A stretch of DNA of 58,017 nt, from positions 1 to 58,017 of IMG/VR virus record IMGVR_UViG_3300028025_000563; one strand, given 5' to 3'. The stretch comes from a virus (lineage: Duplodnaviria; Caudoviricetes). Made by a program: the position numbers and the translations under genes. This document shows positions 16,795 through 50,485 of the stretch, piece by piece (position 1 is the first letter of the stretch; the number at the start of each line of letters is the position of its first letter). The notes beneath the pieces were generated by a model. That model was given only the letters and a program-made list of their open reading frames with translations, ran no database searches and was not told where the DNA came from.

Positions 16795-17053
16795 CCTAAC
16801 CGCAAAGCAGCGTGAACATATAGGTAGAGTTAAGGCTTTACCTTGTTCTGTATGTGATAAGCCAGGACCAAGTGCGGCTCACCACGTTAAGCAGCATCAG
16901 CAGTACACAGTGGTGGCTTTATGTTACGACTGTCACCAAGGCTCATTGCTTGGTTGGCATGGGCAGAAACGTGCGTGGGCAGTGCGAAAGATGGATGAAC
17001 TAGATGCGCTCAATATCACTACCGAGCGCCTCATAGATTCACTGCTTAGTTGA
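16784..17053 (+). CDS. Ref-like (HNH-fold) recombination-enhancement nuclease
   Basis: RVKALPCSVC...AHH...VALCYDCHQG. Confidence 0.7.
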   Translation: MNNNLTAKQREHIGRVKALPCSVCDKPGPSAAHHVKQHQQYTVVALCYDCHQGSLLGWHGQKRAWAVRKMDELDALNITTERLIDSLLS

Positions 17054-46640: not shown

Positions 46641-47384
46641 TCACCTATAGAAGGTCATGCGTGGTACATAGCGATCAGGTGCTTTCTCTCTATCTTCAGA
46701 TGCAGCTAAATCCCATGACTCATCGTACTGGGATTTCAACATCATAATTCTGTCTGGCGATACTTCCGGTAACTTCATTGACAATTTGTAAGCCAATCCA
46801 GCAACTAATGCACTTTGCATACGGAATGGAATTTCTTCAACATTCGCGCCATTACCTGCATCTACTATTCTACGTAAGCGCCAGTAAACAAAATAATAGT
46901 AAGGAGCAGCTAATGTTCCCTGATCTGGTGATGGCCAGATATTAATTTGCGGAACTTTAGGAGTGGCTCCAACAGCATTAGATGTTTGCCCAGAACGGCG
47001 GTTTACCCACACCTGAATTGGACGACCCTGCGCCAACTTATTCGGAATAGTTGAATAAGTAGATACGCTAATACGACTAATGTTTATATCAGTCTGGTTA
47101 GAAATCTGTCCGGGATCAGTGCGAATAACATGTTCAATAAGATCAACGGTATCATTAGGAAGATCATATATGTACTGTCCTTGTATTAACGGGATTTGAC
47201 CTTGCTCGATTGTCCACAAGTTAATGCCACGATTAGCCCACTCGGTAATAAGCAGGTTTAAACTACGGCGAGCAGTACGGAATTGATATCCAGTACGCAG
47301 CTCCACACCACAGCGCTCATACGCCTCTTCCATCAACTCATTGAGATCAGGATTAAATGCAGTGGTAGAAGTAGTTACTGCCAT
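46641..47384 (-). CDS. head-tail connector / adaptor protein
   Basis: EEAYERCG, ARRSLNL..EWANRGINLWT, GRPIQ, AGLAY, EDRE. Confidence 0.7.
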   Translation of the reverse strand: MAVTTSTTAFNPDLNELMEEAYERCGVELRTGYQFRTARRSLNLLITEWANRGINLWTIEQGQIPLIQGQYIYDLPNDTVDLIEHVIRTDPGQISNQTDINISRISVSTYSTIPNKLAQGRPIQVWVNRRSGQTSNAVGATPKVPQINIWPSPDQGTLAAPYYYFVYWRLRRIVDAGNGANVEEIPFRMQSALVAGLAYKLSMKLPEVSPDRIMMLKSQYDESWDLAASEDREKAPDRYVPRMTFYR

Positions 47385-49867: not shown

Positions 49868-50344
49868 TTAGTTTTGAGTCGAAGTAGGGTTAGCGTTGCC
49901 ATTTGTGTCACGAACAACATACTGAATTACAACAGTAGCAGCACCAGTAGTTAATGCAGTGCCAGTAGCAGTGTAAGTAATTAAGTCGTCAGTTGTGCCA
50001 GTGTTAGCAGCAAGAGCAGCGAAAGTGGAAGCAATCGTTACATTAATAAAGCCAGCCGAAGTAATAGTAGAAGCTGTAGCTACATCAGTACCACCAATCG
50101 TGATCTTCAATGTAGTAGCAGAGCTAAAGTCAGCAGACGTAATAATCTGAACACCAGTAATTAATGAACCAGCAGGGATAGCGCCCAAAGTACCAGTCAA
50201 TGAATTAGTGAATGTTTGAAAAGTTACAGGAATGGTTTGGGCAACAACAGTTGCGCCCATATTACGAATAGAACCAACAGTGGTACCAGTAGTGTTTTTA
50301 ACAGTACCAAGTAGCCAAGGGCCAAGATGAGTAGCGAAACCCAT
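49868..50344 (-). CDS. capsid-associated (decoration-like) protein
   Basis: Thr/Ala-rich, IPAGSLI motif; follows MCP. Confidence 0.7.
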   Translation of the reverse strand: MGFATHLGPWLLGTVKNTTGTTVGSIRNMGATVVAQTIPVTFQTFTNSLTGTLGAIPAGSLITGVQIITSADFSSATTLKITIGGTDVATASTITSAGFINVTIASTFAALAANTGTTDDLITYTATGTALTTGAATVVIQYVVRDTNGNANPTSTQN

Positions 50345-50352
50345 GATTTATA

Positions 50353-50443
50353 TCCTCACATGCGAGTTAAGTGCGTCAATTTGCATGTTACTAGCCGGGG
50401 CTATTTGACACACCGGATATCCCGGAATACCTACTTTATAGCA
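50353..50443 (-). promoter_or_regulatory. extended -10 promoter and pseudoknotted 5' leader
   Basis: TGCTATAAA (50435-50443); three interleaved helices ending at SD GAGGA. Confidence 0.55.
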
Positions 50444-50451
50444 TAAATTTA

Positions 50452-50485
50452 AATAAAAAGGGGAGTTTTTAGCTCCCCTTTTATT
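50452..50485 (-). terminator. Rho-independent (bidirectional) terminator after capsid gene
   Basis: AAAAGGGGAG...CTCCCCTTTT inverted repeat with A/T tails. Confidence 0.88.

Follow-up and report, generated by a model that had tools for sequence, protein, structure and literature searches.

The window, which is the whole stretch of DNA analysed, is the 58,017-base virus record IMGVR_UViG_3300028025_000563, judged to be ~91% complete. On its minus strand the gene coding the major capsid protein is followed by an intrinsic terminator, the extended -10 TGCTATAAA, a leader, the Shine-Dalgarno sequence (SD) GAGGA and a gene that starts at the ATG of position 50344 and codes for a probable capsid cement protein (Table 1). 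IMG/VR contains at least 600 relatives of the capsid protein, the best 80 being 87-94% identical to it. Most aligned relatives have, at the corresponding site, a G+C-rich stem with a T-run comparable to the terminator of the window.

The cement gene heads a tightly packed run of minus-strand genes that spans 33 kb and reaches down to position 17039. No strong internal terminator was found within this run. Terminator-like sites downstream numbered 22, against 14.5 +/- 3.6 in shuffles, and 9, against 11.6 +/- 3.2, and all of them are weak. Two products encoded on the same strand downstream of the cement gene gave family matches: the segment 49323-49595 codes a DUF6321 protein (E 8.6e-24), while the product of 46641-47384 weakly resembles the SU10 adaptor protein family (E 1.9e-5, just under the Pfam cut-off). 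A GroES co-chaperonin is annotated upstream of the capsid module in relatives.

Table 1. Features of the leader and its flanks in the window, listed 5' to 3' along the minus strand. Counts of leaders refer to the 100-leader alignment unless another total is given.
Feature	Position	Strand	Remarks
Major capsid protein gene, 303 aa	50491..51402	-	upstream neighbour of the leader; PHROG phrog_371 major head protein, E 2.9e-24
Intrinsic terminator after the capsid gene	50456..50482	-	10-pair stem, 7-nt loop, T-run
Extended -10 TGCTATAAA	50435..50443	-	hexamer 50440-50435; positions 1 and 2 (T, A) invariant in 100/100 leaders
Predicted transcription start, A	50428	-	7 nt past the -10 hexamer and 3 nt ahead of P1; A in 95/98 leaders
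P1 5' strand, box a, CCGGG	50421..50425	-	partner 50395-50399; 5/5 pairs covary
Box b, second copy of CCGG	50413..50416	-	conserved 87-92%; last G forms the first P2 pair
P2 5' strand GTGTGTCAA	50405..50413	-	9/9 pairs covary
Junction adenine, P2/Px	50404	-	A in 97/100 leaders
Hairpin Px, TAG 50403-50401 / CTA 50394-50392	50392..50403	-	3/3 pairs covary; 99.7% of cells paired
P1 3' strand CCCGG	50395..50399	-	sits in the Px loop CCCCGG 50400-50395
Junction G50391 and T50390	50390..50391	-	50391: A in 91/100 leaders, G in 9 including the window; T50390 pairs with A50381
P3 5' strand ACATGC	50383..50388	-	within the loop closed by 50390/50381; 6/6 pairs covary
Junction AAA (consensus AGA)	50380..50382	-	A50380: A in 100/100 leaders
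P2 3' strand TTGACGCAC	50371..50379	-	one G-U, 50410/50374
Linker L3 TTAACTC	50364..50370	-	final CTC can pair with GAG of the SD
P3 3' strand GCATGT	50358..50363	-	partner ACATGC 50388-50383
Shine-Dalgarno GAGGA	50353..50357	-	directly 3' of P3
Gene for 158-aa probable capsid cement (decoration) protein	49868..50344	-	conserved N-terminus, hypervariable body

Counted from A50428, the predicted start, up to the SD, the leader element is ~75 nt long, and the window has a single copy of it. The three interlocked helices P1, P2 and P3 claimed in an earlier note on this DNA, with strand order P1a-P2a-P1b-P3a-P2b-P3b, are all present on the minus strand at the positions given there, and P3b does abut the SD, ending at 50358 with the SD at 50357-50353. 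Three components of the fold were absent from that description. Px is a 3-bp hairpin whose 6-nt loop displays the 3' strand of P1; its middle position shows four pair types across 100 leaders. The isolated pair 50390/50381 closes the loop that contains P3a; it is C-G in 86 leaders, U-A in 13 and of another type in one, and its number of double-change cells was matched in none of 500 shuffles. The third addition is a set of near-invariant junction adenines (50404, the position of 50391, and 50380). P2 can be extended by a G-U pair between G50414 and T50370, and the corresponding columns 36 and 141 carry G-U in 59 and G-C in 30 of the 100 leaders.

The fold that emerges is a three-way junction made of a 9-10-bp P2, the 3-bp Px and the one-pair hairpin 50390/50381, with single adenines joining the arms. 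The Px loop pairs with the 5' tail (P1) and the other loop with the 3' tail (P3), giving a compact double pseudoknot that touches the SD. It begins 0-4 nt past the predicted transcription start and ends 0-6 nt ahead of the SD.

Statistics on the single sequence say less than the comparison of relatives. An interlocked triple of helices of 5, 9 and 6 bp occurred in none of 5000 dinucleotide shuffles of 91 nt, while any 9-bp helix was found in 173 of 5000; the former test is generous because its thresholds were set after the helices had been seen. Nested minimum free energy folding was rejected as evidence, since it carries no information on a pseudoknot (z = +0.71; the fold is as stable or more stable in 148 of 200 shuffles).

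Leader sequences were searched for in the loci of relatives. There was a blastn match in 31 of 87 loci, and nhmmer gave 81 hits in 207 loci and later 146 hits, corresponding to 111 distinct leaders, in 286 loci, the set having been widened by a pattern scan, a second capsid query and nhmmer. The scan for a pattern of three CCGG boxes drew in many unrelated G+C-rich contigs, and only those confirmed by nhmmer were used. Two alignments were analysed: A1 is a model-free MAFFT alignment of 30 leaders, and A2 contains 100 leaders aligned by the covariance model R1 (102 rows including two weak second matches). R1 encodes P2 and Px only. The counts for P1 and P3 are thus independent of the model, and P2 and Px are supported already on A1.

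In A1, 97.5% of the cells are paired, against 87.1% in shuffles and 26-34% in slid controls. Thirteen pairs have changes on both sides, a result reached by none of 500 shuffles, and P1 is invariant in these 30 leaders. In A2, double-sided changes are found in all 23 pairs (P1 5/5, P2 9/9, Px 3/3, P3 6/6), and 97.7% of 2264 cells are paired compared to 81.6% in shuffles, where the observed value was reached in 0 of 500. When the 3' partners are slid by 1-3 columns only 14-45% of cells pair. There are 73 G-U cells versus ~52 unpaired cells; as a G-U pair corresponds to an A-C mismatch on the opposite strand, selection acts on the minus-strand RNA. Complementarity of at least 5 nt without mismatch between the 5' tail and the Px loop was found in each of the 100 leaders when these were checked one by one, with 14 sequence types. 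P1 types include CCGGG/CCCGG, CTGGG/CCCAG, CCAGGA/TCCTGG, CCGAG/CTCGG, CTTGG/CCAAG and CCGGA/TCCGG. Conserved unpaired or junction positions number about 7 (50404, 50391, 50390/50381, 50389, 50382 and 50380), the remaining conservation being in helices.

The element is almost certainly a real structured RNA, and it is found in hundreds of freshwater and marine phage contigs. The functional fold suggested in the earlier note, which was to be given up if homologues showed no covariation, is upheld in the sense that selection acts on the minus-strand RNA: covariation is strong in all three of its helices and extends to all 23 pairs. With every pair covarying, this is among the best-supported unnamed structured RNAs that one could hope for in a phage. 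The two weak second matches to R1, L050:4394-4505 (E 0.097) and L074:4465-4576 (E 0.59), lie ~950 nt downstream of the true element. They are likely false positives that share with the element only a TATAA-like word and a CCGGG hairpin, and the L050 stretch appears to be coding.

Box b, the second copy of CCGG, contributes its last two G's to P2, the first of them (50414) through the possible G-U/G-C extension. At first look the three CCGG boxes appeared to vary jointly, which hinted at a switch between a 5' hairpin (a:b) and P1 (a:c). The a:b hairpin was rejected as a family feature. In 100 leaders it is 91.8% paired against 91.4% in shuffles, with a covariation score under the shuffle mean, and box b is gone from the whole CTGGG clade while a:c persists. 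The a:b hairpin may form in the window's own clade.

At the other end of the leader, the CTC of the linker could pair with the GAG of the SD. These flanking pairs (50366/50355, 50365/50356 and 50364/50357) are 89.0% paired compared to 80.6% in shuffles and display 40 double-change cells compared to 16.1. The figures lend modest support to a putative SD pairing, and related sequences can beat shuffles without structure. If this pairing is real, P3 would be a loop-loop contact and the SD would be half paired; the resulting hairpin could coexist with P3. In Pelagibacter phage HTVC027P and in 023Pt_psg01, P3 overlaps the AGG of the SD.

The extended -10 that the earlier note placed ahead of the leader belongs to a conserved promoter, predicted to be of the sigma-70 type, and TTGACA-like -35 boxes are visible in several relatives. 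The distance between the -10 hexamer and P1 is 8-9 nt in 90 of the 100 freshwater-type leaders and 6-8 nt in 25 of 38 HTVC023P-type leaders. The other 13 HTVC023P-type leaders comprise four without a hexamer matching at least 4 of 6 positions and nine in which the distance is 2-4, 9, 11 or 12 nt. This conserved spacing implies that the 5' strand of P1 begins at about +1 to +4 of the transcript, counted from the predicted start, with a predicted overhang of 0-3 nt ahead of P1. Because P1 covaries its 5' strand has to be transcribed, so that a start downstream of P1 or P2, which would have spoken against the earlier proposal, is not borne out. Four of 21 metatranscriptome runs were compared, as assembled contigs that are unable to show transcript starts or ends; the capsid gene is best covered, a few contigs span the terminator and the leader, and one stops at 50414.

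Conservation of the architecture reaches beyond the sequences that R1 recognizes. The model scores weakly in Phage DSL-LC04 (E 0.063) and in HTVC027P (E 0.2). Reading by eye reveals the same architecture, with unrelated helix sequences, in DSL-LC04, HTVC023P, HTVC027P and 023Pt_psg01. In DSL-LC04 the helices are P1 CTAGG/CCTAG, P2 CTCGTATCT/AGATACGAG, Px CTG/CAG and P3 TAGTAG/CTACTA. HTVC023P has P1 CCTAG/CTAGG, P2 ATTTTGTAG/CTACAAAAT and P3 GTATAG/CTATAC. In HTVC027P and 023Pt_psg01, P1 is ACTGTA/TACAGT and ACTATAC/GTATAGT, respectively, while the P3 that overlaps the SD is CCTAG/CTAGG. The element is thus also carried by cultured Pelagibacter phages, which infect one of the most abundant bacteria of the sea.

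In 80 contigs chosen for relatedness to the capsid gene of HTVC023P, the 135 nt that precede each cement-type start codon were screened with a strict descriptor. It asks for a P2 of at least 7 bp, one or two bases, a Px hairpin whose loop has 5 nt or more of complementarity to the 5' tail, and a P3 of 5 bp or longer that extends 3-14 nt beyond P2. A cement-type gene is present in 53 of the 80 contigs, and the descriptor parses 38 of the 53 upstream regions; as controls, it parses 19 of 2120 shuffles and 38 of 2828 windows taken elsewhere in these loci. With four phage records added, 42 of 57 regions parse; among the 15 that do not, several visibly carry the fold with one mismatch and others have a different leader. 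Roseobacter phage CRP-902 and Synechococcus phage MinM2 possess the cement-type gene without this fold. Between the HTVC023P-related and freshwater sets the junction bases (A; A-C ... G-A) do not differ, and the position of 50404 is A in all 42 parsed leaders of the former.

The gene behind the leader is probably that of a capsid cement protein. Its homologue in DSL-LC04, a metagenome-assembled phage, is annotated as 'cement protein'; according to the paper on that phage, its annotation was made with nr, CD-search and HHpred. For the protein of the window, AlphaFold (AF2) gives a beta-sandwich whose N-terminal arm is disordered (pLDDT 74.5). The best Foldseek match, a weak one (E 1.5e-3, TM 0.47/0.52), is to a chain of 140 residues from the capsid asymmetric unit of cyanophage Pam1, and it agrees with the cement annotation and with the gene position. 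Sequence searches of the PDB with the cement and capsid proteins gave no match.

All complete downstream ORFs seen begin with one N-terminal family, in the forms MGFATHLGPW..., MAxTTFxGPV..., MAxSTTQSIWRS... and MARSTFEGP..., while the remainder of the protein is highly variable. Identity to the window's cement protein is 20-56% among the other members of a 15-sequence alignment, whereas the adjoining capsid protein is near 90%. Across the window and loci L001-L372 the conserved N-terminal arm covers ~12 residues, and the bodies, of 130-250 aa, fall into at least 5 unalignable classes. Such diversity, among phages with ~90% identical capsid proteins, has the appearance of a surface protein that is under diversifying selection or undergoes cassette exchange. 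A single metatranscriptome contig (run X2) matches both ends of the window's cement gene and has 226 different letters in place of the 229 bases of the middle (minus strand, 49993-50223), which fits cassette-like variation of the protein body among co-occurring phages.

In some relatives, including HTVC027P, one or two genes are found between the capsid gene and the leader. The leader stays with the cement gene when genes intervene, and hence it is tied to that gene and not to the position behind the capsid gene. For the gene that the earlier note described as the first of the post-capsid transcript, 'cement gene' is thus the better name. The element leads, and may control, the mRNA of a rapidly evolving capsid surface protein and the whole late operon.

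No match to Rfam 15 families at the gathering threshold was obtained in the window or in seven related loci. The Rfam comparison advised in the earlier note therefore identified no riboswitch or ribozyme family. With the limit relaxed to E 10, 13 weak matches come up near the site; all of them score far under threshold, and most lie over the terminator. The hammerhead ribozyme was considered for the consensus CUGACGA, which resembles its core CUGANGA, and rejected: the window's clade has CUAGUAA, the CUG of CUGACGA is the paired 3' strand of Px, and no conserved GAAA follows P3. HDV-like ribozymes form a nested double pseudoknot with strand order P1-P2-P3-P3'-P1'-P4-P4'-P2'. This assignment was likewise rejected, since the leader keeps the 3' strand of P1 in the Px loop and ends with P3' where the ribozymes end with P2'.

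Pseudoknotted translational operators are known from the T4 gene 32 leader, bound by gp32, and from the S4 site of the E. coli alpha operon, a double pseudoknot, and the S15 site of rpsO. Like these, the cement-gene leader is a cis-acting pseudoknot a few nt from the ribosome binding site (RBS) of the first gene of an operon. It differs in having no sequence or Rfam relationship to them, in leaving the SD and the start codon outside the fold in most members, and in its three-way junction whose two loops pair with both tails. Known 5'-terminal mRNA stabilisers, of the ompA 5' UTR type, are simple hairpins. The leader shares with them base-paired first transcript nucleotides (P1 at ~+1 to +4 from the predicted start) but is an elaborate, deeply conserved double pseudoknot. 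The xrRNAs of flaviviruses and plant viruses are ~70 nt long and have a three-way junction and two pseudoknots, one of them involving the 5' end. The leader resembles them in all these respects. However, the 5' end of an xrRNA pairs into the junction and is encircled by a ring, while that of the leader pairs with a hairpin loop; the host enzymes also differ, and the Rfam xrRNA models gave no match to the leader.

Fremin et al. 2023 (PMC10690425) catalogued 8,495 unnamed candidate structured RNAs from IMG/VR intergenic regions; for 879 of these, a gene with known domains follows within 25 bp. The source of sequences and the kind of evidence, covariation, are those of the present work. The main text of that paper, which summarises the T4 gene 32 leader pseudoknot, contains no description of a leader of a capsid or cement gene. 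Its supplementary lists may already include the motif, whole or as its nested part, without a function. No literature linking HTVC023P with a pseudoknot was found among the top-ranked matches. The leader is a structured cis-acting leader next to the RBS, whose architecture is unmatched to any described family in the search made; this architecture, in which the two hairpin loops of a three-way junction clamp both tails, has no match in Rfam.

The fold and its conservation, its place behind a conserved promoter and its fixed association with the cement gene are demonstrated, while the mechanism is inferred. The reading preferred here, tentatively and with less than even confidence, is that of a constitutive cis module that would seal the 5' end of the mRNA and set SD presentation and translation initiation. 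P1 would bury the 5'-terminal nucleotides and so shield the late mRNA from 5'-end-dependent decay of the RppH, RNase E or RNase J type. Bouvet and Belasco reportedly found in 1992 that E. coli mRNAs with a base-paired 5' end are protected against RNase E. With the whole region upstream of the SD held in one self-contained fold, the SD of a hypervariable, highly expressed gene would be presented to the ribosome in a fixed manner. P1 is kept in 100 of 100 leaders by 14 sequence pairs. The position of P1 close behind the -10 hexamer, the deep conservation of the architecture and the single copy per genome at the head of the 33-kb gene run are counted in favour of this reading as well. The cement gene needs high, steady expression while its coding sequence changes fast, which counts for a constitutive role. 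The lack of a supported alternative fold would favour it too, and the few conserved unpaired positions, sited at the junction, appear to fit a folding core better than a ligand pocket.

Several points weigh against the constitutive reading. A simple 5' hairpin would suffice for end protection. The short distance between promoter and P1 could come from genome economy alone. The partly paired SD of several lineages seems to point to regulation over plain presentation. If the constitutive reading is right, the element could serve as a portable insulating leader. More generally, an RNA so small, well defined and tractable could reveal the ways in which late messages are stabilised or tuned in phages that infect streamlined aquatic bacteria.

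An elaborate and deeply conserved junction suggests recognition by a partner, which makes a protein operator the main rival. According to this explanation, somewhat unlikely but the most serious of those opposed to a constitutive module, a phage protein, most economically free cement protein, would bind the knotted leader by the SD and block translation when in excess. The pairing of the leader with the cement gene, which it follows when other genes intervene, and the common N-terminal family of all complete downstream ORFs seen count in favour of this operator. The junction nucleotides (A, A-C...G-A) stay constant while helices change, as for a recognised shape, and the fold lies 0-6 nt from an SD that is partly paired in some clades. 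A pseudoknot upstream of the RBS of the regulated gene is also what characterizes the T4 gene 32 type, with the action of gp32, S4 and S15 on their pseudoknotted leaders as precedents. Against it, no RNA-binding domain was detected in the 16 proteins scanned, from which no candidate binding partner emerged, and a hypervariable cement body (20-56% identity in 15 sequences) contrasts with an RNA core that does not change. For the conserved N-terminal arm, binding to the capsid protein, itself highly conserved, is the simpler explanation.

A narrower version, in which unassembled cement protein or another capsid component recognises the junction core and blocks the SD, is unlikely. If true, synthesis of the surface protein would be matched to free sites on finished capsids, and the RNA shape, constant from freshwater phages to pelagiphages, would be a fixed handle that frees the protein body to diversify. 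Of the functions offered in the earlier note, protein sensing survives as the protein-operator rival, while the riboswitch and ribozyme readings are without Rfam match and the a:b alternative structure is unsupported.

A small-molecule or ion riboswitch controlling translation of the cement gene is improbable. Its appeal is a compact pseudoknotted fold beside the SD with a conserved junction, plus the modest support for an SD-pairing hairpin around P3b. Yet the absence of an Rfam riboswitch match even at E up to 10, the unsupported helix a:b and the small number (~7) of conserved unpaired positions speak against it, and a capsid structural gene would be an unusual target for metabolite control. 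Processive antitermination has a similarly low probability. Here the RNA would modify RNA polymerase for the 33-kb late run in the manner of phage HK022 put, as its location directly behind a promoter and in front of a very long operon, and its single copy per genome, could suggest. put RNA consists of two stem-loops, an architecture unlike that of the leader. Downstream there are no strong intrinsic terminators, the counts being near shuffle expectation, and the constant closeness to the SD would be left unexplained.

A self-cleaving ribozyme, acting to process the late transcript at its 5' end, is very improbable: the double-pseudoknot topology is shared with HDV-like and twister ribozymes and the consensus recalls the hammerhead core, but no Rfam ribozyme matches, that motif is lost in the window's clade with its CUG paired in Px, few nucleotides are invariant, and an element with its own promoter needs no processing. 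The reading as chance complementary words, or as a DNA-level operator made of CCGG repeats, could draw on the palindromic CCGG being present three times and on unremarkable nested folding of the single sequence; it is refuted by the compensatory changes in 23 of 23 pairs and the strand-specific tolerance of G-U, besides which the spacing of boxes a and b varies and box b is lost in whole clades that retain a:c. The probability left over after all these readings belongs to an explanation not thought of.

The cement-type gene family also has leaders of other designs. A second type is found at 3770-3830 of L292 (Roseobacter phage CRP-902) and in L341, L350, L352, L364 and L371. It reads UCCCUGAC, a hairpin, CUGAC and then CC(A)AGACAGGAGA, with a 5'-terminal CCCUG complementary to CAGG of the SD region. 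A structured leader that pairs its 5' end seems therefore to have arisen, or diverged, more than once. At 1528-1632 of L289 (Synechococcus phage MinM2) the homologous gene is preceded by a G+C-rich leader with the 8-bp hairpin ACCCGGGG/CCCCGGGU. Its second helix, CCGUCUCC/GGAGACGG, would bury the SD, a design unlike that of the knotted leader.
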